Assembly: GCA_051530055.1 (NCBI GenBank)
Contig: CM121341.1
Span: 9,898,784-9,962,783, forward strand
Source: Neoechinorhynchus agilis
Lineage: Eukaryota > Animalia > Acanthocephala
Length of the DNA: 64,000 nt
Reading direction: 5' to 3'
Shown here: piece after piece, positions 24,850 to 62,515 of the stretch
How the letters are laid out: each line of letters opens with the position of its first letter
Numbering within the stretch: position 1 is the first letter of the stretch
The notes under the pieces: generated by a model
Told to the model about the DNA's origin: nothing
Seen by the model: the letters and a program-made list of their open reading frames with translations, nothing else
The model's database searches: none
Made by a program: the position numbers and the translations under genes

Positions 24850-25310
24850 CTAGAATGTAAGGCTCAATTATTTCACGTATTTATTCCCACAGAACAAGGA
24901 AACAATTTAATCGCCTATTAGATAATATTTATTAGAATGATGGATGAAGAATATTGCCACTCAGGAAATAACAGGTATAAATTTGGAAAACTGGGAAGCT
25001 ACCATGAACAACTTACTGCTGAAATTGTTTCAAGCGTAATACCACGGATTGAAATTTCCGTCTTTTAATTTATATATCTCGCCTGAATTAGAAAATATTG
25101 AATTCGAGTTAGGTTTTGAAGTTAAATCAATTGTTAGGTTTCTAAAATCTTCAAATTTAACTGAAACTGAAGTCGTGGCTTTTGCAGGATGTTTTCGTCA
25201 TTAGGGTCATCAATTACTCTGGAGATTTAAAGAACTTCTGTGGGTATGTAACTGAGAAGAAAGATATTGATCAAAATGTTATAGAAAAATTAGTTAGTGA
25301 TATGACATTT
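24850..25310 (+). other. Endogenous rhabdo/mononega-like virus L-protein fragment 1
   Basis: Across frameshifts: DEEYCHSGNNRYKFGKL/WEATMNNLL...FPSF...AGCFRH*GHQ (25193-25213) and YVTEKKDIDQNVIEKLVSD (25245-25301). Matches the vesiculovirus L pattern GN.SY...K..E.I.N, FRHWGHP and VT.KKDID...LASD. Confidence 0.8.
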
Positions 25311-25705
25311 AAGCTCATTGAAAAACGGAACATTTAATTGTGTTTGAATTAAGTGGCTGAATGCCGGAAACTACAAGTTGGCAGTTGTCTTAGCATTAAC
25401 TTCCAAACCAGCTTATCGGAATATAACAAATATGCTTCCTTGGAAACTGGTTTTATACAAAATTCACGGACAATCAAGATAATGTTATGGTATAAATTGA
25501 CAAAAAAGTTGTTCAAAAAATTACAAAGAGAAGAATTGGATTTGACATTGCTCTTGCTCCTGTTCGCTGCCGCATCACCAAGTGGAGCGGCACGCCGACC
25601 CCGCGTTGACAGGCTACTATCAGTAGCTGTCTGGCCGCCGGAGCTGCTTCTTTTACGTGGCCGACAAGAATCAGTAACATCAAGTCCGATCATCGTGGCA
25701 GCATT

Positions 25706-26767
25706 TTGAGACGCCGAATTCAGCCAATCCTCGAACCGTTTCTAAGAATTGAACAGAACGGCTTCAGGAAAGGTCGAGGCACCACAGAGCACATATTGGC
25801 TTTGAGGAGGATCCTCGAAGAGGCACGAATTCTTCAAACGGACGTGACGCTGGTATTTGTTGATTTCCGTCGTGCTTTCCATTCGGTAAATCGAACGATG
25901 ATTGGCGGTATCTTAAAGGAGTATGGAGTGCCGCCGATCATTGTCACATCCGTTATGGCATTATATAAAAACACAAGGTCCGCCGTAAAGATAGCTGGCG
26001 GTTTGACAGAATACTTTTCCACCACTTCAGGTGTTCTGCAGGGCGACACATTGGCTCCTTTCCTCTTCATCTTGGTGCTTGATTGGGTAATGAGATGGAC
26101 ACTACCGAATGATGAAGATGGATTTCTTCTTGGTCTGACCATCAACTCGAAAAAGACGGAATTCTTGACGATTCCGCATGTCGCGCATACAGTCTCTGGC
26201 GAAGGGCCGAATGGCGTTGAGCAATTAAAACAGATAGAGCGGTATGTCTATCTGGGAGCTGTCGTTCCTGAGGTGAGTGCGGATGTCAGCCGACGGAGAG
26301 CTATAGCTTGGAGAGCAATGGGGCAACTTAAACCACTGTTTGACAGTGAGTCTTTGCCAGATGAACTCCGTTCGCAGCTGTTCAGGAGTCTAATTGAGAG
26401 CATTCTCTACTTCAATGCAGAGACCTGGACACTGTCACTAACGGCGACGAGGCAGTTCGACCAAAATCATTCATCTCTCTTACGCACGACGTTCAAGGTC
26501 AGATGGTCAGATAAAGTGACCAACAAAGCACTGTATAAGAGAGCCGGAGCCCAACCGCCCCGTGAATATTTGCGCCGCAGACGACTGCAGTTCACGGGCA
26601 ATATAATTCGGTCCGAGGCATCTTGCCCACAGGTCGTGCAACAGTTCCTTTTCTGGAAGCCATCGACATTGTATCGTAAAGGCAAAGAGAACTGTCGTAC
26701 ATACGACGTAGGAAAGTACCGTTGCAAGTCAGTACTCACAAGGGATTTCGACAACTGCGTTCGATAA
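25706..26767 (+). mobile_element. Non-LTR (RTE-like) RT with deletion of motif C
   Basis: EQNGFRKGRGT, FVDFRRAFHSV, GVLQGDTLAPFLF, then a direct jump to GLTINSKKTE and YVYLG; no YADD. Confidence 0.88.
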
Positions 26768-26823
26768 ACCCTGTCAGAAGTCCTTAACCTACGACTATCC
26801 GGTCAGAGCGGTGACATCTTTGG

Positions 26824-27490
26824 TTGTTGCACCTCTTCAATCGCGCAGGAATGTTGACTTCATTGCGAGCGAAAAACTATTGTGCGAGTGGGGGGCACAT
26901 TGAATGTGGGGAAGATGACGGCAAGTTAATGGAAGTAGTGAGCATGATGGTAAGGAGACGAATTTTAATTCTATGTTTGCAGAAACTACGATGGAAAGGA
27001 TCGAAGGCGCGAGAATTAAGCGATGGCTACAAACTATACTATATTGGATCGAGCAATGGTAGAAACGGAGTGGGGATTATACTGGATCAGAAATACGTAG
27101 ATGATAATGGATCTTGGTGCTCAGAACTTGACGATAATCTCCTGCTAAGCTCCGCAGGTTGGCCGTCCTCAACAAGAGAAGGATGATTTCTGGAACGAGC
27201 TATACGAAGCTATACGAACTGTTAAGTACGATAGATTCATGGTATGTGGCGACTTCAATGGTCATGTTGGGCAGAACAATCAAGCTTGCAAAGATGTCCA
27301 CGGTGGACGAAGCATCGGAACACAAAATGAAAAAGGTCAACGAATCATCGAGTTCGTGCTTGCAAACAAGCTCAGGATCACGGACACCTTTTTCGATAAG
27401 GAAGATCAACATCTTGCAACATACGTTTCCGGAGGAAGGCGTACACAGATCGACTTTATTCTTTACCAGCGCGAGAAACGAAACAAACAC
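26824..27490 (+). mobile_element. RTE-clade AP endonuclease fragment
   Basis: LRWKGSKARELSDGYKLYYIGSSNGRNGVGIIL; APQVG..QQEKDDFW; VCGDFNGHVG; RRTQIDFIL. Confidence 0.88.
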
Positions 27491-28909
27491 TACGGAGGGA
27501 GACTCACCGAGTGTTGTATCGTCCAAATACCAAGCATTAAACTTGGACTTGAGCGAATGAGCGATCGGCCAGATGATATGGTCGTTAAAAACAAGAGGAG
27601 TCTCAGTCCCACAGGTGTTGAGGAAATACTGGTATGCGTCCGATGCGTAAGTTGCGACAGCTTCTAGGAGCACACTGCGATCAACACAGTTGAAGGCGTT
27701 TCGGAAGTCGCATTTGAGCACACCACAGGACTCTGAACTGCTTGTGACAAAAGAGCGAAGTGCGTGCACGACAGCTTCGGCTCCGCAAGGCGTACAGCAA
27801 CCCAGTTGTGATCCACTGCAAGCCGTTTGCAAAGAATCTTTGCTGCAAGACGCCGAAGTGTAGACCCTATAGCGATGGGACGAATCCCACCGTCTTTCTT
27901 TTTAAGGGCACAGAGTGAAGCGCCGAAAATCAATTGAATTGTGAAGGGAGGCAATTCGTCACCAACGAACAGATCAACGAGGCGGGAAAATCTATTCGAA
28001 AGGCTCAGAGCGGCTTCACCCACAGAAAAAGGACAACATATACTTGAGGTGTTGAGGCCTAAGCCCGTCGAGCCCATGACCGGATCCACTAGCAAAGGAG
28101 GATATCGCTGAATCGAGTTCCTTTACAGAGCAGGGAGACATCGAGGCAGGGGAATCTTGGTTCTTCCGATGATTTTGTTTGTTCAGGGTTTCGAGAGTTT
28201 CCTCGCTAACCTGGGTAAATACTTCCGAAGAGGAGAGGATGCGAACAGCTCCCGGATATCAACATCCGAAATTTTCGAGGAGGCGCGTTCCCCTCTGGAT
28301 CTAGCCGGAAACGTACCGTGTGTGGGGTGTTCTGTAGGTCCGTGATAGGCAGCTCGAATTGCGTCCGTAAAGAGTTGATCGAAGGAGGCGATTCTTTCTT
28401 TGACTGAACTGACCAACGACCCCTCAGAACTGTCACCAGCGCGAAGAGCCAGCCTGGGAAAAGCGAAGAGACGTGTTCATGCAATGTCAGACCCGTTTTC
28501 TAAGCAATCCCTTAGCAAAGCACTAAATGACTTCGTCATCTGATACCGAGCGCCCTTTGGGATCCGTTTCAGGATGTTACTGCGCAGAACGCGCAAGATA
28601 CCAGGGAATTTCGTGGGAATGACCTGAGGCGCTAGGACATTCCGAGGAGGTAGTGGGTTCGGGATGACAGATCTTGGGGGGCGGGAGGAACCAGAACAGC
28701 GCGATCTGAGGGGACCGTGTATCCGTACTCCGTACTAACAAGGATTTGTTAAGGCAAAAACAACCACCGCATTCCGAACAAAAACCTTTCGGAGAAGAGG
28801 TGGCCTGGAGGTTTGATAACTCGACCTGTTGTTGTAAAGCCGTTGCGTCATCATCATCATTCAACTCGACGTCGTCCGGTTGTCGTGTGATGGGCACAGG
28901 GTAATCCAA
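27491..28909 (-). mobile_element. CRE-type non-LTR element, N-terminal zinc finger and RT (motif B deleted)
   Basis: KGFCSECGGCF, GGIRPIAIGSTLRRLAAK, CGAEAVVH, KCDFRNAFN and WYLDD. HIIW joins directly to PIAHSL. Confidence 0.85.
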
Positions 28910-31900
28910 CTAAATTTATGACGTCACAGTCGGCACGGCAGAATCCGAGAGGTCAACGTTCGGCTGCATTGTGTAAAGAAAGACCTCAAAAAAGACCGGT
29001 CGAGACAACACAACGAATTCTCAGCTAGCTTATCGGTCGTTAATTCAAGAATGCTGTCGAGACCTATTGAGAAAGTTTCGCAGGAAATTACTATATATAT
29101 AACGCAGAAGTTCAGCCTTTTTGACACTAGAAGACAGGAAGACGCTGCAGGGTAGGAATAAAAAAATTTTGATCTTTTGTTGATTTGTCAAAATAACACG
29201 TTTTGGACGTGAAGAGCAGATACGAAATTGAATTGGCCTGAAATATGTCAATTTTACTACTTCGTCACGCTCACTCTTACGCCATGGAAAGAACTAACGA
29301 AAATGACAAACTTCCGTGGCAGAAATCTAAAGGGAAATTCCTGCGTATTCTTAGAATCACTGCTAAGAATGCACCGGCGGATTTCTACAAAAGATGTGCT
29401 AAGGAAGAAAAAACACTCGAAAATTTGCAGAAAATGGCTGAAGAATATTTACATTTTGCGACAGTGCTGAATGATCATTATGCGAAAGAGCCCTGCTCTC
29501 CCGAGGGAGTGCCGGGATGGACGCCGTTGATCATCCTCCACTTCGAGATGAAGGCGGAGGTTTTCGGACTTATGAGGTATTTGTGTTTTCACTGTTAACA
29601 CCCTCCCCCTATTCCCTGCTGAAATCCCTCCCCAGACCTCTCCTTCCCTCTGATTCGACTATCCAAGTTCCCATAACCAAACTTCCCATCAGAAAGGAGG
29701 ATTATATCCTTCGCATTCATAAAGAAAATATGGGCTCCAAATACAATATTTTGGAAAAATACAACAAACATACTCTCTCATCACACCAACGTAACCTTCC
29801 CACTTACCGTAACAAAAAAATTTCGACAACAAGTTCAGCTTTCTCTTTGCCTTTGTCGACAACAAGGGAAAATCCATATTCTCAGATATGCTTACAGATA
29901 TGAAAATAAAACATGATTATCTTTCCAGAAAAGTCTCCTTCTTGATGACCAACCCTCCTCTTGATCTCCCGATTGACGAACAAAAAATTACTGAGAGCGA
30001 TCTCAAAATCAAACTCATAAAATACCTATTCCGCAAAAACAGTAGCTCTCCATATGCCTTTCTTTGCCCCGCCCCAATTGATGTAGCTGATTGCTTATGT
30101 GGTTCCAAAAAAAGTGTGTTCTCGCATTTTGTATCCTTCACCAATTATAGGGATTCGATCTACGATTTCAATCTCGCTCCCACTGGGGTCATCAGCCTCA
30201 TGGATGCAAAATCACTCCTAGGTGTATTTTCTGCGCTGGAGACCACTGCGAGGATAAATGTCCGGACCCCAAACAAAAGTCAAATGCGCCAATTGCCATC
30301 TTCCTCATCCTTCTTTCGCCAGATCATGCCAAGCTGCTAAACAATTTTTGGCCCAATGCTCTTACTTGGCCAAGAAACCTCTAAAGGAAACCATCATCAA
30401 ATCTAGCTTTCCCGTTCCTGGGCCCATAAATATGAATTCTGGCGCACCCTCCTTTGCATCCCCCCAAAAAGTTCTCTCCCCAACCTCAAATTCGGAAGGT
30501 CCTTGCCGTTACTGCTCCCGTGGCCTTTTGAAGTCCCCCTCACATCGCTCCTCAAGTTCTGTTTTCCCTACTTCTAGCTCTAACTAAAAACCAGTATTTC
30601 CCTCAGAATCTGAAGCTACTCCAATTATTCCGATCCTCTTGCAGGATATGGAATCCATAAAAAAACACCCTTAGTTGTCTACTGGGCATCATGTCTGCTT
30701 ACGGCCTTTTAAAAGAAAGTCAAAGCAGCCCTTCCGACTCGGAGGAGATGATCATCGTCCCCTCCCCAAAAAAACCCTCTTTGTCATCTTTCGAGTTTCT
30801 TACTCATAAGAAAGGCAGGGTTAACTAAATAGAATGTTTAAGTTCGCTATAACTACACATAATTTATCGAGAGCTTTTTCTCTTCCCCCTCATATTCTAA
30901 ACCCAATTTCCGATTCGATTCCAGACATCCTCTTTTTTCAGGAATCTCTTCTGACTCCTACCTATCTTTTTTTCTTCCCCCCTCTAATCCAGGGGCGAAT
31001 AATCTCATTGGGTTCTCCGGAGGCTTGCAATCTTTTATTCTCAGGAAATGGCAACCCAAATTGCTTGTCCAGGAAAAAAAACAGTGATTTCACATTCCAA
31101 ATTATTTCTATTCTTAATCCTCTCTACTCCCATCTCCCTTTCTTGGACACTCATCTTATTATCATTAACGTTTACGTTGCTCCCCGTAAAATTCCTTCAT
31201 TCCTCAAATCCCAAGCCTACAAAGTTTTGAATTGGAATCCAGATATTATTGGGGGAGATCTCAATTCTAACTATCTGATAGCTTTCCGTGAAACCTTCAA
31301 ATTTCATAATTGTATGTTACCTAAGTTCTCCTCGTTTCACAGCTTCCATAAAAACGCTCACCTCATTCTTGGACGGATTTTTTATAAAAAAATCGCTTCC
31401 CTTCTCTCTATACCCGACCCTTCAATTACAGTCACAACAGTTTATGGGGCATGATTTTATTTTATTTCAACAAACGGATTCATCTTTAAAATCCCTTAAT
31501 GATTCCATTGCCCTCTCGCTTAATAGCAAGTCTCTAATTTCCCTCTCCGATTTTAACCACATAATTTTAACCTCGGCTGAATCCTGCTTGGTCAAAAAAT
31601 CCTTTGTACCAAGGGCTCAAAAATCCAAAAAGGCCAACCAATTTTATCGACAAGCTATAATAGCTAATCTTAGGAACCTACCTGACCTTCACCAAACTTT
31701 TATGAATCGATTTTATTATACTCTTCACTACGAGGACCCCCTTCTAAGCCTTTATGGAACATAATTTTTAACAAGAAATTTACTAGTTGGAAAGCTAAAG
31801 CTTCCAACTGGATCGGTTCGGTTTCTTATCCCGTGGTAATTTAAACCATTCTGAATGCCCACACTTTTAGTGCCTTTTCGGATCCCCCTATTCCCATTCT

Positions 31901-31997
31901 TCGACATAAGAAGTTTAATGTCATATATCATTGTCCTCGGGGTGAATTTGATTGTGCGTTGGCGAATCCTTTCCCCGGTGTTTTCGTTACTCATTTA

Positions 31998-36940: not shown

Positions 36941-37390
36941 ACTGATTATCGAGATGACTAAAAACTGGGCAGTCGTTCGAGGTGCCAACTTGACTTCTAC
37001 TGTTGGCGATCCTATCACAATGCCCTGGTGGCGGCGAGCTTACTACCGAGTGTTAGTCAGCGTACGTAATAGGCAACAATTAAAGCGCTTTGCGGTTATG
37101 GGGCATTTGTTATGGGCTCATTTAGTTGGGCATTATGGTGATTCCTATTTGCCCTACTTGTGGACTGAGTCAACTGTGGCGAGCTACACGGTGCATTGCC
37201 CTGTCAAGGACGCCACTTCTGTCAAGCTGCGTAAACAGGGTTGTCCCTTTCCGGGCAGGCGGGCGAATTGTGTTCCCTACGTTGATGATCAACTCGAGCA
37301 AGGTTCCCGACTGGGGGTTGTAGAGCCAAATAGCCAGTATACAGACCAGGGTAACCAATCTCACGCCACGCGTCCACCCAGCGCTGCTAA
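36938..37390 (+). other. Noda-like virus protein A fragment, piece 3 (region approaching the RdRp)
   Basis: Overlaps piece 2 by ~105 bp (7 substitutions, 1 gap). Continues NLTSTVGDPITMPWWRR...; in a shifted frame SQIASIQTRV resembles the nodavirus SI..RV motif upstream of the RdRp core. Confidence 0.55.
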
Positions 37391-38525
37391 GCCCGAAACT
37401 TGCCCACGACAATGCCCTCAGCCTCCCAGCTGTGGTACTCATGAGCGTAGACGTCGCCGCCTCTCGTGGTCATCGTGACGAACTCATTTTGGACTCGTCC
37501 TGTTACCTCTCCATCAAACAAACTGAACTCTGCAGCGGGACGGTAACGCGCAAACTCATGGGTTATAATGACAAAGGGTGAGTTACAAGCGTCAGTAAAA
37601 TTCAACAAGTGGAATGTAAAAGTCCCACATAAGACAGCACAGCCATCTTATTTGGATCAGTGCACTCCTGGAGTCTATGATAACACAGTGATGGTGAGTC
37701 AACAGACAACAGCGTGGCTTTATCAATGACAGTGATGTTCAGGTAGCAGATGTGGTCGGTTTGCAGGGTGTCCCTCTTCGCAGACCCTCCTACATCACGA
37801 TAGGCTTTGTTGGCCAGCCTCTTCATAACGGAATCAGCAAACTCTTCCAGCTGGGCTCTGACGTAAGCCATGGTCAGGTGCCCTGTCAAGTCATTGCTTT
37901 GAACGAGTGGATGATCCTTGGTGAACTGCTTGAACAGTGCTTTGATCGTTCCAACTTCAATAGGCAATACAGGAGCATCTTGCTTAATACCATATCCAAT
38001 ACACCGGCAACACCACAACATGACAGCCCTTGACACGAACAAAGTGACATACATCGCTGTGCCCAATACGACGAAACAGATAGCGGCCCAGACAACTGGG
38101 ACAATCAACTTAATCAAATCAATGGCAGTCCAGAACGATAGATAATTCAACACTTGGTGACGAGGTACCTCGAACCCCAGGGCAGCATACAAGCTGCAAA
38201 TTAGTGGGATTTTTCGGGTCAATTCACATTGTCGAATGATCGAATCTGCAGAATGGCGAGACAATCGACGTAACAAAACGTCGGATACCTGTTTCTCGAG
38301 CACGCGTCGCAAACACACGAGGTGCCAGGGCTCCTTTCCCGAAAGTAAGCTGCTGGCAACGCTTACACTATCAATGACAGGTATAACCATCGTGCCGAGG
38401 GAGTAAACTAATCTGGTCCAAAAGCGCTCGAACAAGCCAATAGCAGCTGGGATACCACAAACCATTAGGAACAGTGGTAGCACAGTCGTGAAGGGCGAGA
38501 AAATCAGTCGAATCAGGAAAATCAT
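37390..38525 (-). other. Noda-like virus protein A N-terminus: hydrophobic anchor and capping methyltransferase, piece 1
   Basis: GHLTMAYVR (37883), RDVGGSAKRD (37799), CYHRLQEC, (Y)VDFYI after a frameshift, and PFVIITHEF..DGE..V..TTRGGDVYAHEYHSW. This parallels Flock House virus H..A.R / VDYY / HTF..VSGGA.WVH.VWDW. Confidence 0.8.
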
Positions 38526-38934
38526 GATCAGAGGAATCGGTGTGCAAGGATGAAAGATCGCAACCGCAGGTCGCTGTTAATATTCTGTCGACCGCGACCG
38601 ACTTAATGTACAAAAACATCGAGGTTTTAGGTCAGACGGTGGGCAATCTCAGGGATTTCTACCATGCGGAATCTAATCCCGTCCGCTTTTCTTCAACTTT
38701 TAATAAGTTCAAAATAAAGCGTCCACGATGCAATGACCTAAATGAACGTACATTCCTAAGCGAAAATTGGAATATCGACGTTTCCAATAATTTCGATCAA
38801 TATTACTTATATTGAGGTTGTAGTGAGCATTAACGACGTCATAAGGTCCATGTTAACGTTTTCCGTGTTATGTTGAATAAATAAGCCATTTTTGTGCAAC
38901 GACAGTAGATTTTTCGATCTACTGATGCCAGCCG

Positions 38935-39399
38935 TCGTTAATTACGCGCGACTTTGTTCCTGGGGTCAATCAATAGTAATTTTCATGTACCCAGTTAGGT
39001 GGTCTTATATCACTGGCGACCAAAAGAACTTGGCCAATACTGTTCCAAAACATGCATCTAGCTATGTCATTGGGTCTTACAGGCAGCACAATGTTCAGGC
39101 TGTGCATGAAGGTCAAGACTACGTCTTCAAATCGTTTGACAATCACACTGTCACGTTGGGCTCCATTCGCGCCACCACGGTCATGCAAGCAGCCTTTCAG
39201 GTTGCTTTTTTAGAGAGAATTGAGAATTGGGCTGGCGTGTGCCGCACTCTTATCAGCCACAATGATGACAAAATGGAGGTTATTGATATGGCGGCCCAAC
39301 TGATTATCGAGATGGCTAACGACTGGGCAGTCGTTCGAAGTGTTAACTTGACTTCTATTGTTGCGATCCTATCACAATGCCCTGGTGGCGGCGAGCTTA
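38935..39399 (+). other. Noda-like virus protein A fragment, piece 2 (post-methyltransferase region)
   Basis: Open frame QSIVIFMYPVRW...AAQLIIEMANDWAVVRSVNLTS; shares its 3' 104 bp with piece 3. Confidence 0.55.
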
Positions 39400-39429
39400 G
39401 AGTTGCTTCATTTATGAATTTTGATTCCA

Positions 39430-40050
39430 AGAATATTTTCTAATTGGCGGTGGGTTTAGGGTTGCTTTTCGATGTAGTGTTCGTCTCATTCTTCTCTCGC
39501 TGAAAACTCATCCTCGTCTTCATTAAGGACCTTTTAATTGCCCAATTCGGATATCCTTCCTCTCTGAGCATTGATGTTATTGAGTCAATTCCTTGCCTCC
39601 GTCATTTCTCCTCGGAGCATATTCTCATAGCTCTCCTGAATAAGGCATCCGATGCTGCTATCTTGTATCTCACAGGGTGGTCAAGTCCAGTTTTGGTTCG
39701 CCACAGTTTTTCTTGAGTATTTTATCCGTCAACTCAATGGCCTCTTGAAGAGGAATGTTAGTGAATAAAGATTTAATATCGGCCGTTATAAACCATGATA
39801 TGTTTGATGGAAGATTCCGCACTTCTGCGAAATTCATCAATAAAGCAACGCTGAACAAATTACAACCTCCTATAAGAAGATGCGAGACCCACTCGGTGTC
39901 AATATATTCAAAAGCAGCAACGAAGTTGGCGGGTATATTCAAAAAGAAACCAAAACAAGAGGATAAAAGTATAATCTAAAAAGTACCATGCAGACAATGC
40001 GGAAAATATTATGTTGGACAAACAATTCAAGGACTAAAAAAGCGCCCCCC
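39430..40050. mobile_element. Penelope-like fragments in opposite orientations
   Basis: Minus 39790-39480: ADIKSLFTNIPLQE and HPVRYKIAA..LFRRAMRIC. Plus 39820-40050: II*KVPCRQCGKYYVGQT (GIY-YIG). Confidence 0.8.
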
Positions 40051-43318: not shown

Positions 43319-43760
43319 TTAAGACTGCAACAATTCTGCAAGGAATTTCAGGAGGTGTTCTGGCGGTCTGCCTCTAGAGAAGAAGACAAGGCCCGAAATG
43401 TCCCAAGAATTCCAGACCGATTTGATCGCGTTTAGTCCAAGACCTAGACTAAACGCACTCTTGGCTTGGATTCTGGCAATCTTCAGCAGCTTCTTGAGCT
43501 TAAATATGTTGTGCGTAATACTCAAATGAATACTGAAAGTATACCCCAGAATATCAATCTTATTATAATGGGGGAGGCTATCCAGCTTAAAGAAGTCCGA
43601 GCAGAATTCTCTGGCTTTGCGTTTCCCTAGCACTGATTTAGATTTTAAAATAAATCTAGTTTTGTTGGGATTGAGCTCGAGGCCCATCCGAGAAAGCTTC
43701 TCAATGAGAAAGGAAAAATAGGCTGCGATGAACAGACGATTCGAACCCAAATTTTTCTCT
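43319..43760 (-). mobile_element. LINE RT C-terminal fragment
   Basis: LSRMGLELNPNKT and DILGYTF (post-motif-C region). Confidence 0.6.
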
Positions 43761-43789
43761 ACCGATGACATAGTTGCGCCGGAGGCCGA

Positions 43790-44980
43790 CTTGTCGGAAG
43801 AAGTTGAGCCAACAATCTTCACAAGCTTCAGAGAGGTGGCGCTGAGGACACCAGACTGGCAGTGCGGGGAGTTGCCGGAGGCACTCCGACGTATGATCCC
43901 GTCTGCGTGGTTGCTCAGTGAGGATAACGGGAGCTTCCGATTGGGACTCTCATTGGTTTATAATTATGAGCAAGGAGGCAGGGTTTGGAATCGGGATATT
44001 GAGGTGCGGTTTTCCACAGTGAGAGAAGGCGTGCAATGTAGGTATCTGAGTTCGGGAAGGAGTACGAACGAATATCCCCCCTGACACTGTTGGAGATGTG
44101 CTCAGGACTGACTGATATAGTGAGAGACGGGGCCTGGCTACAAGCACTCAAGAACACAAGTCAGTTTGTGGGAGGAGTAAGAGCACAGGATTATCAGCCC
44201 GGGCACGCCAAGGCGATAAAGACACTCATGAGCAGGAAAGTGCAGCCGGAGAGGTTCGTGATGCGCATGGCTGCGGTGTATTGCGCACAAGCATTGAGAG
44301 AGGCAGGAGCACAAACTAAACGCCGCCTGGGCGGGGCACGGACATTGCGGTGGTTGAACGTCAACAACAGTCAGGCTCATGGCGATTTATTGATACAAGC
44401 AGTGATGGGGAGAAGTGACATCGTGTACGTACCGTCCGAAGTGGGCGACCCCCGTACAGTGCTGGCGGCGGTATGCCTTGCCGCTTCGCCAGAGTTCCCA
44501 TTCCGGGACATGCTTCTTGGGCGGACAGCCTGGCCCAACATAAACAATCCATTGATAGCATATAGCAGGCTGCTAGATACAGAGTATGATTTGGAGGAAT
44601 TGAACCTGCCGGCAACAGAGTTGTGGAACATCTATTCTCGAATCTGCCATCATTACGGAAGGACAAATCTCTGGTGGAACATGGTGCGAGGAGTAATGTT
44701 TGATGCGCTCCGAGTGGAAAATCTCGCTTTCCAGGGCCCACTGCTGGAACAGTACACGCCAATGGAGCAGTGACCAGCCCCCTACATAGATGAAATGGTG
44801 CGCGAGGCGATGATGCGGCACATCCTCCTATCCAGTTGCTATGGAGAAGCAACACAATGGGCATGGGAGGCCGAGTGGCTAACTCGATGCTCTTGAGAGA
44901 TTTAACAACATGGACGGGTGCTTGACAGCCCGCGTCGCGGATCTGCTGGCGCGGACAGGATGGAAGCGAAACTTATCCGC
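43790..44980 (+). other. GC-rich, long, coding-like insert; probable toti-like (dsRNA virus) capsid fragment
   Basis: ~400 codons in one orientation with a frameshift at ~44080 and a stop at 44773. No retroelement or host motif; composition foreign to the AT-rich host. ERFVMR, DIVYVP..AAVCLAA and WPNI segments resemble toti-like capsids as recalled. Confidence 0.45.
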
Positions 44981-45669
44981 AGGGTGATGGTGGCATCTCA
45001 GGAAACGGCTACTGGCGCAGAGGAAATGAAGAAACGCACATCCCAGGCGTCGTTGAAGGACCTTAGGGCAATGTCCGAAGAGTTCGAGAACTTGGAAGAA
45101 TCAGTTTAGAGGCAGTGGGAACTTTGACTGCCTCAGAGAGAGCCTCCCTTGGCGGCGTGGGTTTTCTGAAGGATACAACCCAGAGTCAGGGTTTTCGGTC
45201 TGGGACTTCTTTGGCAGGCCGGGTCTCCCCACCCATGACCCGAGCGAAGTCGAGGGTGTCCAAAGCGCGAGAGACGGCTGCCAGCCCGCCACCGGGGCCG
45301 GCAACAACGGAGCCCAGCGACCGACAAGCTGCATTGGGTGCGGATGCAGCCTCCAATTCATCTACACTCAATATCGGACCCTCAAAGAAGGCTTCTCGGA
45401 AACGAGGAGGTCAATGAGCCGGAGACCTAGTTGCTGTGGATAGACAACAAAGAGTGTGTTGTCTCCAGGATTGTTTGTGTTCGGCGACAAACGTAGAGAG
45501 GGACACCCAAACTGGGCGAGAGCGAAGGCTCGCGCGGCGATAGCAAGAGTGGAGAGGAGAAAACACTGTTGCGGGCTGGCGCCGGAGGCCTGGTTGCGCA
45601 TATTGCGGACTCTTGATGCTGCTAGCATTTTGGCCAGCGCCGATGAATGGGAGCGTTGATGAAACTAAA

Positions 45670-46990: not shown

Positions 46991-48599
46991 ACCCGCTTAT
47001 TCGCGAATTGTCAACATCGGGGGAGGGAGTCCGAATAAGATAACGGTTCGTGGTGTTCGATCCGTTACTACTGGGTCATTAAATCTTAGGTGTATTGAAG
47101 AGCAGTGGATGTCAAAGCTGAAGAAACTCCTGAGCTTTTGAAATTGCTGGAGGTCGGTTCGGTTTTTAGCCAAATGGACCATCATCACGGTAAAGAATGT
47201 CGGCACGCAAGATTTCGCGAATTGAGACAAATGACAGAAGAGGATGAGAGACGGGCCCACCACCATGATTCGACAGTGCTGATAACCGAGCAGGAGGAAG
47301 AGGTGCAAGTTCAGGAACAGGAACCCGCTGACCCATATGAAGGCCTTAGCACCCTCTGCTGTAAACAGCCCATTTTTAAAGGATGCCTTTGAATTTACGG
47401 TGGATCGGGGGAGATGGTTGTTGGAAAGGACTACTTCGTAAATCAATAATCGGTGACTGAAGAAATAATATAAAGACTACACATTGAAAACGTCGGACTG
47501 AGGCAAAGAGGATGGTGTATTATCAATCTCCTGGTTTTAGGAAAAGAAGTGGAAAATCGAAGATCAAGATTTTATGGAAAAATTAGCTAGTGATATCGCA
47601 TTTCAACTAACTGGAAAACGGACGAATGCGCTTCATAAAACATCGTTGTAATCGCGTTGTTAAAGTAGAATAAAGCGTCCACATTGGCAGGCAGCTCAAT
47701 TTATACTTTTCATGGAAAAACATTTTTTGACCCAATTGCCGAAATAAACGTACATCTCTAAACGAAAATTGGAATATCAACGTTTCCAGTAATTTTGAGA
47801 AATACTACTCGCATTGAGCCGCTCGTCCTAAATGCGAAGGTTCCACCATTCGCTTCAAAATCGCTCGATTCATCTTAGAACAAAAAAGAACGAAGAGAGA
47901 AACGCGAGTGCATCGATAGAAAGCGGGCAGCGATTTAGAAGTTACAAAAAAATAGAAGAATTCAAGCTCTGTGTAATGATTTGGCGCCCGTTTAAAAAAA
48001 ATGTCGTCATTTTTCCGCGACGCAATGGCCGAAATAAACGTATATTTTTAAACGAAAATTGGAATATCGACGTTTCCAATAATTTCGAGAAATATTAGTC
48101 ACATTGAGGCGTTCGTCGTTTACACACAATAGAACGCCGTAGCCTGAGCAATTGTCAATTTTGGACATTTGACCTTGCTTGAAGGGGCCTCGATGCGCGC
48201 TCAAATTTAATAAAAATTGCGCTCTCCGTTCAAATAGGAATATACTTGAAGGCAAACCTCCCGATCCTTCGGGTTTTGGTGCAGTCAGTTCATCGTCCGA
48301 TATGGATTGTGAACGAATTACCCGGGATCGAAAGGAAGTAATTGATCAAGGTTTGTTTCGATTCAATGACTCTAACTCCGTTTTTGATGGAGTTTTGGGA
48401 TTATCATATTCTCAAGGTCAGGTGGATGATCATTAGGAATCTGGTAAGTTTTCTGTCGTCTCTGGTCGTGATAGAGACAAAAGTTCTGCCCACAAAAGTA
48501 GTTATGTCCTTCGTCCTGTAAGGAAAGAGGATTACATAGTGATAATCAAAAATGAAGATCTTTCATCAAAAAAGTAATATCAAAAAGTCATCAAAGATT

Positions 48600-48790: not shown

Positions 48791-48799
48791 GACCACCAT

Positions 48800-51856: not shown

Positions 51857-52735
51857 TCAGTGGAATTTCAGAGGAAATGCACCTGAGATTCTATGAATTA
51901 TAGAGCGTATCCTGAGGAAAATCATTTGGCCGAGTCTCGCTGTTTGGTATTTGCAAGCACGATAATATGTTTGGAATGATGGTTTGTTTGATCCAGGAAA
52001 TAACCACTGAACAGCATTTTCGATGAAGCTCTTGCACTTAATGGCAGTTGCCGATACAACCATCGACCGTTCTTTGTATCTTATCTCCATCTCGAGATCT
52101 TGACTCGTCTCGTGCATAAAATTTGATAGCTGGTCATTTTCAGTTTGAATCGCATGGTACGGAACCTTCATCGAAGTATAAGTCTTTTCGAATTCCTTGA
52201 TCCAAGTATTTAGGAGATCAATCTGACGATCTTTTCTAGCCAACATTCGTTCAACTTCACCAGTATGTACATTCAAGTCATCGATTTCCACTTCAAGTTG
52301 CTGAGTCTGATTTTTTTCCTTCGTGAGCAATTCTCTCAAGTTATTATTTAAAACTTCCATGTCATCGATTTCATTTTTAAGCTTTGATAACATCACTGTA
52401 ACTCGAGATTTTGTTTCGCGAGCCTTATTTTTACACTTGTTTTTATTTTCCTCCACGCGTTGTTCCATCATTGTACGATATTTACGCAAATTCAGTCTAA
52501 TTTGATTTATTTCATCTTTTACGATTTCGTCTTTATTCCGATATATTTCCAACTCTTTCTGACACTTCACAATATCCGTTTGTAAATCTATAACAAGTTC
52601 AGTTATTGGTTGTCTTTCTAACTCGCTGTGAGTTTCCGCTATTTGACTCTCTGATAATGAATTGATCATTGGACTATCAAGCACAGGTTCGTCTTCGATT
52701 TCAATCGTTTGTTCAACTTGCTTTGGATTGCTCAT
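51857..52735 (-). CDS. Coiled-coil protein of unknown function (292 aa), full-length copy
   Basis: Uninterrupted ATG ORF with heptad-like E/K/L-rich middle; lies within the inverted duplicate 52136-53356 of 16216-17435. Confidence 0.75.
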   Translation of the reverse strand: MSNPKQVEQTIEIEDEPVLDSPMINSLSESQIAETHSELERQPITELVIDLQTDIVKCQKELEIYRNKDEIVKDEINQIRLNLRKYRTMMEQRVEENKNKCKNKARETKSRVTVMLSKLKNEIDDMEVLNNNLRELLTKEKNQTQQLEVEIDDLNVHTGEVERMLARKDRQIDLLNTWIKEFEKTYTSMKVPYHAIQTENDQLSNFMHETSQDLEMEIRYKERSMVVSATAIKCKSFIENAVQWLFPGSNKPSFQTYYRACKYQTARLGQMIFLRIRSIIHRISGAFPLKFH

Positions 52736-53301
52736 TTCGCTTTATTGTTGTACGTTTTTTTAACACACTAAGCGTGCTGAATCGGATTGGCCATATCAGA
52801 GTTCTAGTGAAATTTGGTAAATAAATTACTGGTTATTATGCCCTAACGAGCGTGCTTTTGAAAGCAAGTGAAAATCGATTTTATGGATATTTTCGTAAAC
52901 ATATTTTGCAATAGGTTAGGCGTGTGAGTTACTTTAAAACATAATTGAAATCTTCTTCTAAACAACAAAGAAGCATATTATTGCAATGCTGTCAAAAAAT
53001 CTCGAGTGCAGACTTTAGTGATATATTCCCCTACCAATTGTATTTTGAGCAATTAAATCTCTCTAAATTTTTGTTTCCAATTTTGTAAATTAATCGATGG
53101 AATCGCTATTGGGAATTGAAAATAAAATTAGCCCGGACTACAATAACGACAAATAAAAGTGAGGATCTACTTTTCGATCATGACAATGCGACCCTTTGCT
53201 CACCTCAGTCTCACTTCAATGAGCAATGAAAAACTTTTGAGTTTTAGCAAAACCTCAAAAGTTCGTTCTTAGTCGACAAAGAATGCCAAGTATCAAGCGC
53301 G

Positions 53302-53356
53302 ATGTTTCCTGAATACACTCTTTATTACTTTGATCTCGAAGGACGAGCTGAAGTTA
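53302..53356 (+). pseudogene. GST 5' stub (first 18 codons)
   Basis: MFPEYTLYYFDLEGRAEV is identical to the start of 15614..16270, then unrelated sequence follows. Confidence 0.9.
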
Positions 53357-54039
53357 CACACAAAATATTTTTGACGGAGGTACAAGCTACAGTCCAAGTG
53401 GATGGGCCATATGGCGGACTGGGCTCTCTGGGTTCAAAGATGGACACAAATGGAAGAGGAGTACGCGAGACGCAAGATGTTAGAAGCGCTGGAACAATTG
53501 GGTGGACTTGATAACCCAAGTTTATCCCAAATGTTGACAAAGGGTCATTGTGAGCAATTCGGCATTAAGGCTACTCCATATTTACTAGATTCTATCTCTG
53601 ATTTTAAAATGGGTAAAACAATGGATCTATGTCGAATGATAAACAGTTCTCCAGAACATGTAATTGCATCAACTCTGCCCTTTATCGAGGTCACGGATAA
53701 TTTGTTAAAGCTCTGTGTAAGCTTAAAAGCCTATTGGAACACTGTCTCAATACCAACTTAGAAATCTTCCAATTACAATTAGCAATAGAATCTATAGGTA
53801 GCAAAATTGACCAAAATCCAGTTCATTAATCGATGGATTATACCATTACCAACAAATTGCAGTTCATTTCCACGACTAAGATGAACAGTAGGAATTCCAT
53901 AACATCATTGGGTATGGATTTTTAATGGACTTACAAAATTCCAACAATCCAATCGATGCATCGCCAAAATCACTTTCACTTGGTAACACTGTCCAATCTC
54001 TTCACTTTTAAAAGCAAGACCACCAACTTTATTCGTGGT

Positions 54040-57000: not shown

Positions 57001-57060
57001 ATTCGGCGGGAGGTGGTGAGTGTGTTAATTGTCGAGAAATGAAGATTGATTGAATACATT
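54040..57060 (+). mobile_element. Near full-length CRE-type RLE retrotransposon, inactivated
   Basis: Zn finger CPVC..VHG..C, KRIPKGAR, KCDFRNAFN, GVQQGDPL, WYLDD, CCHC knuckle, RPDG. Stops at 55072 and 56653; RT domains 1-2 deleted near 55230. Confidence 0.9.
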
Positions 57061-58586
57061 TATCGTTATTGACAAAAAAATCTTTTTAAAAAATCAAAGC
57101 ATTAGAAAAAAAACTAACAATTATCAGCCAATAATGGATTTATTCACTAAAAATTATAATGATTACATTGGGAATAGCAATGGTTATGATCAAAATGACC
57201 ACGGTAATGAGTTTAGTTAAGAAAATGTTCATCAAAACAATGAGACTATCCAATAACCGACTATTCACTAAATTCTCCTAATATTGATTGTATAATCGTC
57301 AAACGGGACGGGTTCGATCATACATCGGACCACTGAAATCCGCTGTGACGTCAAAATGAGATCCAAGCCTTGACCAAACTCGGATGTAGGTGGCGCTAAT
57401 TGCGGTTTTCTCTCATCTTTTCAATTCAACTAGTGACTGTTGCCTTAAATTGTATAATTTTATGTTAAAATAATTGGCGGACCGAATTTGGTCCGCGGTC
57501 AGTAGTTTGCCGAAAGTACAAAATTCGGACACATTACCTGACTATCTCCCTGGGCTAAGATATTAACGACAGCATTTCCATTTTTTTACACACTAGACAA
57601 TAGGCTAATAATACACCAGTCCTTTTTGTGTCCTCTTCTGAATTAAAACAGGTTCTAGACTCCATCAATCAGAACATTTGCTCTGACTCCAATTACAACC
57701 ATTGCTCCACATCAGAATGCACGCAATCTTTCACATCAGCGTCTGAAACTTTTGTCAATTCGAAGATACTCCCCTTAGTTTCGTCATACGAAGTACTACA
57801 GCATCTCAAGAAATTACCTCGAAATTCGTGCTCTTCATCCGAAATCCAAAACTGGGCTCTTCGCTGCATCAATGTATACGAGATCGCACGGTACGATTTG
57901 GTGACACTCGTGGAAATGTTCATGCTGAGGGTCGCAAAAGTTATCACGTGATTCATAATGTACAAGGCGAAGAATCGCGCTAGCCAGTCGGTCGTGTTGA
58001 ACGGCGAACACAACATCGAAGCAACATGAAAGGTTTTTCCTAATGGACCGTGTCAACCCAGTACCAACAACGCTCTGGATAGTTTGGATGTTGTTACATC
58101 TAAAGTACCAGTTTCAGGCATAGGTGAAAGACCATTGCACGGTGCAAAGGCCTCTTGCGCCGCTTACAGTTGAATGTACAGAGACGAACATTTTGAATTC
58201 TCGGCCTATTCGCACCAGATTGTATCGTGTATGTTCCTCATCGCATCGTTCAGCGGTCGAAATTGCAATCCAGTGATCATTCAGGATGTCTCGGCTCCAC
58301 ACTCGACTACCTTCACAGTTGCAAAAGCTTACGATTTCGTACTAACCTGTTTGAACTCTCCGAATTAGCATCCAAGATAATCCTTTTCTATAGTCTATGG
58401 CCTCGCTACTTCGAGAGCATCGATTTCAATTTGATCAGTCTTTTTTGGACAAAATTTACGGTACTTATTTGGACTACCTTCGATGTGGAAACGAAAGAGA
58501 TCATCCGTCCCTCACAGCGGCAGCAAAATCCTTTGGCCCAAATATTATCTAGCTAAAAAAGTGGGGCAGAATGAGCCTAAACGCGG

Positions 58587-58877
58587 TTGCTTTTCACGAC
58601 TCGGAGAATTCTGGCGAGCCTTCTTGATCAGAAAAATTACTACGAGTCAATTATGAAATACGTAACCGACACATCACTGAACGAATTAATAGATCATATG
58701 AGAAAAGGTAGTATTGTATCTGACATGCTGGTGCTGTGGGCTGCCTCCAAAGTGTACAACTGCAACTTCGAGGTCCACAGATCCGATGGTCAACTGCTCG
58801 TCATACAGCTACTGACTGCTATTCCAAGTGGCTCTAAGACTCAAATCTTCTTCGCTGCGTACGTAGCTGTGCCATAA
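58587..58877 (+). pseudogene. OTU-like cysteine protease C-terminal fragment
   Basis: HMRKGSIVSDMLVLWAASKVYNCNFEV...FAAYVAVP follows the OTU pattern M.k..wg..lel.Aas..y..i.V...HY.av.P; no catalytic Cys or His seen. Confidence 0.4.
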
Positions 58878-60373
58878 ACCGACACTAAAACCGTCCAATC
58901 AATCGAAGGCGTAATCGTGCGCTTTACTTCGCAACTCCCTTGTCACACAATCTCTACGAGGTGGTCAACTGTCATCCAACGTTTTGTAAAAGTGCACTTA
59001 ACCTAGGAGCAGAAATTTCTCTCTCGCTCCTGAGCTCGGATACAAACTATCATCTCCTGGAAAAGGATGTTTAATTCGAATAACCTCGTGCCTAGCCGAC
59101 ATTTTCAAACGTAAATCAGAAAGCATATTTCGCCTATCCCACTGAAAAATGGCCACCGGTTATACCTAAACAATCATTACAAAAATGACGGTCTAAAAAA
59201 GAATCAATCATTTCATCTCTGGAACAATGAGGTTCTACCTAACAACAAAAAAGGCCCTCACTCATTCACGACTTACTAAATTCCAAACCCACCACGAGAT
59301 CTTCACAGTCTTCACAGAGTTCATTTTCCTAAATGTTGCCACTGTGCCGATGATAACCACGTCTCGGAAAAGTGCCCGAATTCTAAAAATATTCGTTACA
59401 GGACCAAATCTTGAATTTGTTTAGCCGCGACAACGCACCTTTCCCCCCGCACCTCGATACTTGCATTTTCTAGTCCATCGAAGATATTTCTCAAGAATAG
59501 CATTCCTATGTGTTGCTCAGCTGGTAGTCTTTTTATAGATATGTTTATTTTTTCCATACTGGGCCCAATAATATGTCCTATATAGAAGACGGAAAAAATT
59601 GACTGAATCTCCTACTGCTTGGAAAAACCAATTAGGTTACCACTAAATAGAATAATGCAATTGATTATTTATTTTTGTCATTAATTGCCACAGATGGAAA
59701 ACTGTAACAAAAATAAAAATGTTAACTTAATTCGGTGTTACCGTGGATGCTAGCGGTCGACCTAAAGATTCCGGAGGCTCGAATAATTCGAGTGCACAAT
59801 AGTCCAGACGATGAGATGGGCTAGGCGATGGAAACTGATTTATAAGGATTTTTAAAAACGATTCGAAGGCTCCGTGGGAGCATGCTAGAAAATGAACAAA
59901 AACAATCATTTTCGAAGTTAAATCGCTTTTAGGAATTGCAGTTATCTGCTGATTGTCGATAATCTGCAATTCTGGAAATTGTTCAGTGATCACAAAAACA
60001 TCTCTAGGACGTTTATTAAGAAAACAAGTCTCATAAATAGAGAAATGCGAATAACTCAGGAAATATTGCAGCTATCCAAAATCTGAAAACATGTTTGGAA
60101 TAAGCTCGTCAAAAGTCATAAGCGTGTTAGATCATGAAAATTGCAATAAACAACCAATTTGATGTCTCCGTGAATCGTGCAAACGATTTTCGAAGAAATA
60201 TCGCTTTCTTATCAACGCTTAGATAATTACTTCGTCCAGCGATTCTTTTTAAATTGTCTTCAATATAAACTACGTCATTGAATTTGAACCAGCGTTAATA
60301 GTTAGGAAAGAAACGTCATGTTAATTATTGTGTATCGTACAGTTCACAGCCGGTTTTTATTAGGAAATATTCC

Positions 60374-60697
60374 ATGGCTGACGAGTCTCCGCACCAGAAG
60401 GGTTTTCCTTCGCAAATGGGCGATTCAGGCGCAAAGCAGGATGAAGTTGAGCCTTACATTAAGTTGAAGGTAATCAGTCAAGAGATCGGGGAGGTATACT
60501 TTAAAGTGAAATCGAATACTGTTTTGGGTAAACTCATGAAGTCTTATGCTGAGCGGGTTGGTTTGCCCGTTGGGACTCTACGTTTTATGTATGACGGTAA
60601 AAGGATCAACGAGGGTGAAACAGCAAGGCATTTGGGTATGGACGACGAGGATTGTATTGAAGTGTATCAAGAACAAGTTGGTGGGCACGTTGATTGA
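60374..60697 (+). CDS. SUMO: SUMO precursor, second intact copy
   Basis: Identical to 22845..23168 except CIDVY changed to CIEVY. Confidence 0.95.
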   Translation: MADESPHQKGFPSQMGDSGAKQDEVEPYIKLKVISQEIGEVYFKVKSNTVLGKLMKSYAERVGLPVGTLRFMYDGKRINEGETARHLGMDDEDCIEVYQEQVGGHVD

Positions 60698-61055
60698 GTT
60701 ACTACTCATGTTCGAGAATAAAATATTTTATCTGTTCGACTGTTCAATGAACTCACGGCTGATTTTTGGCTCAAGGCCAAGAAAGCTCTCTAAAGGGAAA
60801 AATATTTAATAGAAACCATTCTACGTTCAATTTTTGCCCCGTCTGTTTCAAACGAGACTGATCAATAATGATCTCGCTTCGCATTATGCAATAAAAAGTG
60901 GCTTTTGTTATCTCTGTTATTCAATGGTATTCGTCGATATTCTCAAGTTTGCTTGCTTTTCTGGCTAAAACATTGCGGAACAACTTGGCGATCGGAGAAC
61001 GACTTATAATGATCTTAATTATTCTTTTTTTTGTCGCCATCGGCAAAAGCAAACA

Positions 61056-61596
61056 ATATCGACGAATACCATTGAATTACAGAGATAACAAAAGCCACTT
61101 TTTATTGCATAATGCGAAGCGAGATCATTATTGATCAGTCTCGTTTGAAACAGACGGGGCAAAAATTGAACGTAGAATGGTTTCTATTAAAGATTTTTCC
61201 CTTTAGAGAGCTTTCTTGGCCTTGAGCCAAAAATCAGCCGTGAGTTCATTGAACAGTCGAACAGATAAAACATTTTATTCTCGAACATGAGTAGTAATTC
61301 AATCAACGTGTCCACCAACTTGTTCTTGATACACTTCAATACAATCCTCGTCGTCCATACCCAAATGCCTTGCTGTTTCACCCTCGTTGATCCTTTTACC
61401 GCCATACATAAAACGTAGAGTTCCAACGGGGAAACCAACCCGCTCAGCATATGACTTCATGAGTGTACGCAGAGCAATATTTGATTTCACTTTAAAGTAT
61501 AATTCCCTGCTCTGTGGGACTCAACTTCATCCTGCATTGCGCCTGAATCGCCCATTGGCGAAGAAAAGCCCTTCTGGTGTGGAGACTCATCAGCCA
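61056..61596 (-). pseudogene. SUMO: Inverted SUMO pseudogene with 3' flank, forming a fold-back with 60375-60940
   Basis: Reverse complement of the upstream SUMO gene and flank. ATG changed to TTG, a ~20-25 bp deletion in the YIKLKV region, several substitutions; 115-bp spacer. Confidence 0.9.
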
Positions 61597-61989
61597 AGAT
61601 TGATAAACGATATCATTTCTAGAATGTTACGGGAAATATGTTTCGAAGTTTCATTTGGCGGAACTTTTCCAGCATTTCGATGGAAATACCCCAAATGGCT
61701 TATACTTTCCTCATAGCTTAATTGCGTTTTTGAATAAATTTAGGTACCCTTTGTTCAATATGGCAAGACTAAATGCATTCACATTGTTTTTAATCTGTGC
61801 AAATCAAGAATCCCGTTGATTGTGCTTTTTAAGAAGCATTTTTAATTTTTTGGGACACATGTCTGAACAGCAAGGAGCTTGATTCTAATTTCTACCAAAC
61901 GACCTCTTTCTTATTCTCCTTTGAGCAACGCAATCATCAAAATAGTACCAACGTCAATTTGATGCCTGAGTCCAATTCACGATTTCCCT

Positions 61990-62515
61990 GCAAGTGGTAT
62001 TGGTTATCGATAAAGCTTTTGTCCTACAAGGTGCCTTTTTGGAGCGAGGTTCCGGTGCTTATCAATCTTGATTATCTGTAAATGATTCAAAATGTTCTGA
62101 GGTCAATAGTGTATAGCCTTATCGGCTAATAGATACCAGGAAATGGAATCCGGAAAATGTTCAGTCATCTCATAGACAAAGTCTACTCCTTGGTCGATAA
62201 AGTTTATTGTCATGCAGGAAACAACGGGTACTAATCCGGAAAACTGTGGGAGGCAATCATGAATAGTTTCTTGTTTGACTTGTCTAGAAACTCATATAAA
62301 GAATTGGATTTTCCATCATTTTGGTTGTTGAATCTGGGTTTAAAAGTTTGGATGATGACTTGAGTATTCAAGTAACTTCGTTTGTTGATTATCTAAACAA
62401 TTGGACCTCATCACGACTTAAGTAGTTGCTCCTGCGTGTTGTTTCCAGCATTGGGCATCCGACTATTGATTATCAAGAAGGGCTAAAAGCAATCCATTAG
62501 TACGTGACAGAACCA
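61990..62515 (+). other. Endogenous rhabdo/mononega-like virus L-protein fragment 2
   Basis: VYSLVDKVYCHAGNNGY*SGKLWEAIMNSFLFDLSRNSYKELDFPSF (62181-62321) and FQHW/GHPTIDYQEGLKAIH*YVT (62443-62509). Compare vesiculovirus L GNFSYDLIKMVEPICNL..FPHF and FRHWGHPFIDY..GLEKLH.QVT. Confidence 0.85.

Follow-up and report, generated by a model that had tools for sequence, protein, structure and literature searches.

Two decayed fragments of a rhabdo-like virus L gene, separated by 37 kb in a window of 64,000 nucleotides from the acanthocephalan Neoechinorhynchus agilis (the whole stretch of DNA analysed here), most probably derive from two separate reverse-transcription captures from related viruses and decayed afterwards; we put the probability of this reading at about 0.8. 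It is drawn from the coding-type divergence between the two copies, together with the lesions, end points and immediate flanks that they do not share. The positions of the fragments and of the neighbouring features are given in Table 1.

Table 1. Positions of the L copies, related pieces and neighbouring features in the window
Feature	Position	Strand	Remarks
61-nt L piece	18390-18450	+	82% identical to the copy 1 tail (25269-25329), E 2e-9
SUMO-like gene block	22718-23521	+	ends ~1.4 kb ahead of copy 1
LINE 5' part	23530-24849	-	adjoins copy 1; endonuclease domain 23720-24097, Exo_endo_phos_2 E 3e-6
L copy 1	24897-25331	+	decayed rhabdo-like L fragment; VSV L ~259 to at least 395
High-copy LINE piece	25554-26767	+	opposite side of copy 1; RVT_1 E 2e-13
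Chroparavirus-like methyltransferase EVE	37390-39440	split over both strands	PF19223 E 7e-12, 1e-11, 1e-18
Second copy of 61-nt L piece	47562-47622	+	within a duplicated block
Second SUMO-like block	60247-61051	+	ends ~1 kb ahead of copy 2
Inverted, broken SUMO copy	61047-61596	-	~90%
L copy 2	62034-62515	+	decayed rhabdo-like L fragment; VSV L ~217-378
Possible 61-nt GT-AG intron	62076-62136	-	antisense across copy 2; one contig, in one of four runs
Picorna/calici-like RdRp fragment	63140-63500	+	immediately follows copy 2; RdRP_1 E 8e-4, short of the curated cut-off

Identity and state of the two L copies

Raw whole-genome reads covered both L copies at a depth of about 13-21, resembling that of single-copy neighbours (the runs may include the window's own sample). 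DNA contigs crossed the copy 1 region (24589-25204 and 25206-25583) and copy 2 (61372-62977 in run X3 and 61372-63987 in run X1) and spanned the edges of the copies, which are thus integrated and contiguous with host sequence. L copies 1 and 2 are single-copy genomic fragments.

VSV L was the best PDB match for two non-overlapping profiles (E 0.032 and E 0.024; PDB 5chs, 5a22). The E-values are weak individually, but the two matches were colinear (residues 217-305 and 362-395), with a spacing that differed from expectation by one residue. As judged from sequence similarity, the two copies are homologous and stem from a Mononegavirales L gene, both in a decayed state. VSV L, colinear but distant (E 0.02-0.03 per profile), is the nearest solved structure and gives no taxonomic placement. 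Both motifs read in the copies by the preliminary description, one of YCHSGNNRY type and one of YCHAGNNGY type, were present where it had located them. It was also right that the copies cover the same L region, but not that this region lies only ahead of the HWGHP motif, since the pieces continue through a broken copy of a motif that we take to be of HWGHP type.

Pfam gave no L match for any single frame of either copy and no L domain among 24, 15 and 150 translated pieces from the window, the last set comprising 150 of the 314 window frames of at least 62 aa; since even the L copies went unmatched, the silence of Pfam is uninformative on other L pieces. Single-frame PDB searches gave no L match in five of six queries, and the sixth, from copy 2, matched VSV L at E 0.34; one of the five, a frame of 25261-25550, had no PDB match. 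Protein searches by word matching, run with alignments of the EVEs, returned nothing at E <=10 among 1000 and 37 candidates of up to 2000 aa, a range that excludes full-length L. None of 36 pattern matches was confirmed in an IMG/VR scan for relatives, and phage tblastn gave no match, as expected. A metagenome match (L001, one of 51 pattern matches) was attributed to chance, since it lacked an ORF of 80 aa and did not extend past the pattern. These searches and scans thus yielded no close relative among viruses. Apart from the 61-nt pair (E ~0.2), a window-wide profile of both copies detected no more pieces of this L region.

In VSV L numbering, the copies share about 120 codons and their end points differ; the edges of copy 1 are uncertain, and it may start at 24850 and extend towards 25553. 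Copy 1 carried stops at 25037 and 25202 and frame breaks near 24933, 24991 and 25207. In copy 2, stops were located inside the compared blocks at 62232, 62419 and 62498, with further stops upstream, and frame breaks near 62334, 62394 and 62456. The disabling lesions therefore amounted to two stops in copy 1 and three in copy 2 within 111 codons, with three frame breaks apiece, and no stop, frame break or end point was common to both.

Divergence between the copies

Local alignment of both regions scored 204.5, against 76 +/- 10 (maximum 107) in 200 shuffles, and the L cores only scored 189, against a maximum of 73.5 in 100 shuffles. For the codon test, six blocks (111 codons) were hand-picked from the automatic alignment, two of them were framed by hand, and ambiguous stretches were omitted. 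The copies were 59.8% identical in nucleotides and 51 of the 111 amino acids were identical. Differences at codon positions 1, 2 and 3 numbered 40, 32 and 62, with a pS of 0.76, a pN of 0.31 and a pN/pS of 0.41; in the alternative two phases of the same alignment, pS was about equal to pN. The excess of third- over second-position differences was matched by none of 20000 column shuffles at fixed phase, and by 178 of 20000 when the best phase was taken for each block. Neutral simulations gave a pN/pS of 0.81-0.84 +/- 0.14, and none of 2000 reached 0.41 or less, starting from either copy. The broken SUMO duplicate, used as a control within the window, differed at 7, 8 and 9 sites by codon position. 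Given the third-position excess and a pN/pS never reached under neutrality, the L copies are, on this codon-level comparison, sequences that diverged while still protein-coding.

The preliminary description had held that the copies are not a recent local duplicate, and this was borne out, as the differences were enriched at third positions and the immediate flanks were non-homologous. The codon-aware alignment that it proposed revealed the excess of synonymous change expected of viral divergence; neither randomly distributed codon-position differences nor homologous flanks, which it had named as signs of duplication after insertion, were seen. A pN below pS would likewise result if the host had co-opted one insertion as a coding sequence and, after its duplication, purifying selection had acted on the diverging copies until each of them died. 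Such a history is very improbable, because each copy holds fewer than 170 codons of a 2109-aa protein, the ends differ, both carry several lesions, and no intact copy was found among the reads mapped to the two L stretches only.

Flanking sequences and SUMO duplicates

Homology between the flanks of the L copies did not exceed that of shuffled sequences in any of eight tests (7-75 of 100 shuffles reached the score). Upstream of both copies stand SUMO-like blocks that are a 99.3% duplicate of each other and had escaped the preliminary description, and the sequence linking the SUMO block to the L piece showed no homology between the two sites. These near-identical blocks, 1.0-1.4 kb upstream and in the same orientation, hint at an older shared SUMO-L arrangement. 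A single insertion might have been duplicated long ago with the SUMO gene, gene conversion keeping the SUMO copies alike, with neutral drift of the viral part and replacement of the flanks. At both sites the SUMO block precedes the L piece and the orientation is the same, which fits this history, as do more duplicated blocks upstream (19789-20723, equivalent to 58976-59907). We consider it improbable, although slightly less so than co-option: neutral drift cannot yield a pN/pS of 0.41 (0 of 2000), so that the codon test had already largely refuted it, no stop or frame break is common to the copies, and the SUMO-to-L interval is non-homologous. Together with the gene at 60374-60697, the inverted SUMO copy makes up a long inverted repeat.

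Separate captures agree with the codon test and with the unshared lesions and flanks, and this part of the earlier proposal is likely right. Its other part, that the source viruses were different, is one of two readings that fit, the second being a single lineage sampled at two times. Synonymous sites can also become saturated with time inside a single RNA-virus lineage, and a large share of the amino acid differences may have arisen by decay after insertion.

The 61-nt piece, which the preliminary description had overlooked, differed from the copy 1 tail at 11 sites, distributed 4/3/4 by codon position (pS 0.17, pN 0.19), and no homology was seen upstream or downstream of the piece at 18390-18450. 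It lies in a block of 613 bp that has a 97.6% identical duplicate (17910-18522, equivalent to 47082-47694). Since the differences look neutral, the piece is likely, on sequence grounds, either part of copy 1 duplicated long ago or captured from a virus nearly identical to its source. L pieces are therefore likely to undergo neutral duplication at this locus as well.

Overlap of the captured regions

The preliminary description had suggested a template-switch hotspot or selection for repeated capture of one region; this found no support, as the ends differ and overlap is not rare once a few L fragments exist. If this part of L were preferentially captured or retained, by template switching or by antiviral small-RNA selection on a conserved region, the overlap of at least 370 nt would be explained, which has a probability of only 3-7% for exactly two random L fragments; the third small piece (61 nt) touching the same region would also fit, and so would antisense transcription of copy 2, of which the signs are weak. 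We consider this unlikely. The L copies have no common end, chance overlap rises to 18-36% for four fragments and 41-69% for six, and the window was chosen for this overlap. Moreover, the 61-nt piece looks like a neutral duplicate, and copy 1 had zero depth in two probable RNA runs. The overlap within L is most likely the product of chance plus ascertainment.

Neighbouring retroelements and other EVEs

The window contained reverse transcriptase, endonuclease, RNase H and integrase domains and three kinds of virus fragment. The LINE adjoining copy 1, presumably of RTE type as labelled from a motif, has a second genomic copy that aligns as far as 24848. A loose end of 13-14 nt was observed at 24849, for which a spliced leader is a candidate reading; such leaders are reported to be present in bdelloids and absent from Brachionus. 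In run X8, depth over the LINE piece on the opposite side was about 50- to 100-fold that of single-copy sequence. The sole PDB match of the fragment downstream of copy 2 was RNA-directed RNA polymerase 1khv (E 0.4). The chropara-like EVE was split into halves, with profile positions 4-173 on the minus strand (37390-38576) and 173-302 on the plus strand (38877-39440). A host GST was nearest to that of Neoechinorhynchus agilis, the one informative hit among 249 candidates. The best Atlas score for the ORF at 44042-44770, 0.82, was uninformative.

Retroelement reverse transcriptase is an established route for non-retroviral EVEs. With LINE pieces adjoining copy 1, a host retroelement enzyme may have captured viral L RNA; the host would have met the same rhabdo-like lineage repeatedly, and EVEs would have accumulated in a retroelement- and EVE-rich locus.

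Comparison with known systems

In the accessible part of a report on Pomphorhynchus laevis, 18 divergent Mononegavirales RdRp-like sequences, placed near Cytorhabdovirus and at least sometimes transcribed, were ascribed to multiple insertions, in part ancient (PMC12548735). As here, these were differently fragmented pieces with indels, many in number and with a mean mutual identity of 60%; they came from unplaced contigs, and their host origin was described there as unproven (PMC12548735). In contrast, the L copies here have host genes as neighbours on a chromosome-scale contig of 19.4 Mb, are supported by raw reads and were compared codon by codon; such a placement was beyond the reach of that report as far as its accessible part goes (PMC12548735). 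The words 'virus' and 'viral' had no occurrences in the P. laevis genome paper. Our results support, at the level of sequence, more than one entry of a rhabdo-like virus lineage into the host germ line.

The Rhabdoviridae nrEVEs in Aedes piRNA clusters, as the accessible portions of the sources describe them, resemble the copies in length (median 620 bp, ~0.5 kb here), in that a single transposon-rich region holds fragments of several virus families, and in the mixture of duplications and unique integrations (10.1101/127498, PMC5497376, PMC7161354). According to the same portions, transcription of Aedes nrEVEs is mostly antisense, and the EVEs, which lie with LTR elements and share one orientation, are a source of piRNAs; L-derived EVEs are few in Aag2 cells (10.1101/127498, PMC5497376, PMC7161354). 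Unlike what is described there, the neighbours here are LINEs, orientations are mixed and host genes are interspersed.

Acanthocephalans keep PIWI and piRNAs, according to the accessible text of PMC12256650. The locus could conceivably be an antiviral piRNA archive holding fragments of at least three RNA-virus groups, including the repeat rhabdo-like captures, a tentative reading that we hold to be doubtful and in which antisense transcripts of the EVE fragments would be spliced and then give rise to piRNAs. The window was dense in transposon and EVE fragments, as piRNA clusters are; a flamenco-like single-strand bias was not seen, with retroelement domains and the chropara-like EVE on both strands. 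If the reading is true, the mosquito-type EVE-piRNA system would extend to a parasitic spiralian, and piRNAs from the locus would mean EVE-based antiviral memory in a parasite group for which the literature found held no prior description. Without piRNA output, the locus would represent ordinary, well-supported repeated endogenisation, a kind of event already known.

Transcription over copy 2

Copy 2 may be covered by antisense, spliced transcription, of which weak signs were seen. It was covered, and copy 1 was at zero depth, in two runs guessed to be probable RNA, both from one study. The antisense strand call derives from a single contig joint and a single end resembling a splice acceptor. 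The contig supporting the candidate intron came from run X4, with a depth of 14 and 29 nt on its shorter side; the intron has CT..AC ends, and such ends at this spacing occurred at 9 of 2528 positions.

Homology and identity of the two L fragments

Both motifs quoted for the fragments in the preliminary description were located on the plus strand. The regions of copy 1 and copy 2, two decayed pieces of a rhabdo-like polymerase (L) gene, are homologous, with a local DNA score of 204.5 against 76 ± 10 in 200 shuffles; their cores scored 189 (maximum of 73.5 in 100 shuffles). Both copies are genomic. Raw WGS reads (run X8) covered copy 1 at a depth of ~15-21 and copy 2 at ~13-15, like the single-copy reference stretch 58151-58584 (~13-15), although the runs used for depth may include the window's own source sample, and DNA contigs crossed the edges of both copies.

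Single frames of both fragments gave no Pfam match, and L was absent from five of six single-frame PDB searches, while the remaining one returned L of vesicular stomatitis virus (VSV) at E 0.34. The upstream-frame profile placed the N-terminal domain of VSV L (residues 217-305) at the top of 177,635 sequences with E 0.032, and a separate downstream-frame profile again ranked VSV L first (E 0.024, residues 362-395). The 69 linking codons of copy 1 predicted a histidine at VSV 358, and the second anchor put the same histidine at 357. A motif that we take to be of the HWGHP type was present in broken form. Given the order and spacing of the anchors and this broken motif, assignment of both pieces to the L gene, not to any family, is safe.

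Features of the window
Feature	Position (strand)	Remarks
L copy 1	24897..25331 (+)	about VSV 259 to at least 395
L copy 2	62034..62515 (+)	about VSV 217-378
SUMO blocks	22718..23521 (+); 60247..61051 (+)	99.3% identical
61-nt L piece	18390-18450	duplicated at 47562-47622; 82% identical to copy 1 tail
Chroparavirus-like methyltransferase EVE	37390-39440	two halves in opposite orientation, continuing each other in profile
Picorna-like RdRp fragment		immediately following copy 2
High-copy short repeat	62948-63055; 8857-8976	related to unannotated ORF 8853-9272
Glutathione S-transferase (GST) gene	15614-16324	on 19.4-Mb contig
GC-rich ORFs	43722-45440	including 44042-44770 (243 aa)
Forkhead-domain gene	1060-2667; 10460-12074	duplicated, 95%
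Inverted duplicate with coiled-coil ORF	16213-17435; 52136-53359	97.6%
Tandem repeat array	1-660	seen as recurring translations

Probable separate capture and its alternatives

A frameshift-tolerant codon alignment yielded six blocks of 111 codons, in two of which the frame was fixed manually with the VSV anchor and copy 1's open frame as guides; the ambiguous 25067-25084 and everything beyond 24897-25256 were left out. The copies shared 59.8% of nucleotides and 51 of 111 amino acids, and their differences fell 40/32/62 by codon position. The pS (0.76) was higher than the pN (0.31), an excess found in all six blocks, whereas the two alternative phases gave pS close to pN. Column shuffles reached this excess in 0 of 20000 cases with the phase fixed and in 178 of 20000 with each block allowed its best phase. 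With substitutions placed at random at the rate observed, pN/pS was 0.81-0.84, and values of 0.41 or below never appeared in 2000 simulations from either copy. As a control, a broken SUMO duplicate of the same window differed 7/8/9 by codon position, as expected of a neutral duplicate. Two stops in copy 1 and three in copy 2 were all unshared, no frame break or end was common to both, and homology of the immediate flanks was absent in eight tests. Because of the codon-position excess, the unshared lesions and ends, and the unrelated flanks, we conclude that the copies diverged while still coding, for which divergence within viruses is the simplest account.

The codon-aware alignment proposed in the preliminary description thus favoured its independent captures over the alternative named there, a duplicate with randomly placed differences and homologous flanks; on this sequence evidence we put separate captures at about 80%. 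Its view that different viruses were the sources holds as to divergence while coding, but two species would look the same as one lineage sampled twice. Since post-insertion decay was estimated from stop counts at 13% and 21%, with very wide intervals, identity between the source proteins may have been well above 46%.

Each L copy sits 1.0-1.4 kb behind a SUMO block, and this repeated arrangement, which an older duplication of SUMO and L together would produce, is unexplained. The 99.3% SUMO duplication does not account for the L copies because it stops short of both and the intervening DNA is unrelated; that unrelated DNA, together with the failure of neutral divergence to give so low a pN/pS, also argues against the older event. 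Duplication of L scraps probably occurs in the window too, since the 61-nt piece differed from the copy 1 tail in a neutral-looking 4/3/4 by codon position, with only 11 changes.

Preferential capture or retention of this L region, suggested earlier as a template-switch hotspot or as selection, is improbable and found no support: a hotspot predicts common ends, which the copies lack. When fragments of this kind were drawn uniformly from a 6.3-kb L gene, two of them overlapped by at least 370 nt in 3-7% of draws, but some pair did so in 18-36% for four fragments and 41-69% for six, and the window was chosen for its overlap, which is thereby subject to ascertainment.

Surroundings and hints of transcription

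Host genes were mixed with retroelement domains on both strands, and copy 1 had LINE sequence on either side, the 5' part of an element at one end and a high-copy piece of a different element at the other. Such viral insertions can arise by retroelement-driven capture, and retroelement machinery would have captured the L fragments. The high-copy repeat, with a depth at 62960 ~50 times single copy, lies after copy 2 and before the picorna-like fragment; neither it nor the related ORF matched Pfam. At 63394-63625, a diverged contig of run X4 (depth ~95) matched the picorna-like fragment in two pieces and may represent another EVE or a living relative.

In two putative RNA runs of one study, contigs covered 61372-63987 at a depth of 20-37, while 57934-58801 was empty and copy 1 had zero depth. 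One contig, in one of four runs, skipped 62076-62136, with only 29 nt on its shorter side; the ends are GT..AG on the minus strand, a combination seen at 9 of 2528 positions. In the two putative RNA runs, contigs departed from the genome exactly at 24849/24850, ahead of a minus-strand AG, and carried 13-14 extra letters identical to 62993-63006. As that stretch belongs to a multi-copy repeat and lacks a GT donor, the letters may stem from a different copy of the repeat, from a leader or from a long intron of non-canonical type. These contigs, which cannot show strand, hint at spliced antisense transcription across copy 2. Beside copy 2, a long inverted repeat (60370-61600) is made up of the SUMO gene and its broken copy in reverse orientation; the minus-strand fold of this repeat was predicted at -949 kcal/mol against ~-300 in five shuffles, making it a possible candidate source of hairpin siRNA.

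PMC12548735 describes 18 Mononegavirales RdRp-like sequences (mean identity 60%) in Pomphorhynchus laevis, on unplaced contigs with host origin unproven; they were interpreted as multiple insertions, in part ancient, close to Cytorhabdovirus. Acanthocephalans have piRNAs and PIWI, as stated in PMC12256650, and flatworm rhabdoviruses are the subject of PMC9241645. In Aedes (bioRxiv 10.1101/127498, PMC5497376, PMC7161354), EVE clusters of several virus families yield antisense transcripts that give piRNAs; those clusters have a single orientation, unlike the window. Our literature search found no description of clustered EVEs on a chromosome of an acanthocephalan. The locus would be of wider interest only if small RNAs showed it to be an antiviral archive.

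The GC-rich ORFs, without match in Pfam and Atlas searches, may be of toti-like capsid origin. Judging from the GST, a single protein, the host is likely an acanthocephalan: of the 249 candidates compared, the only other one to match with an E of 1e-10 or less came from Neoechinorhynchus agilis, at 49% identity.
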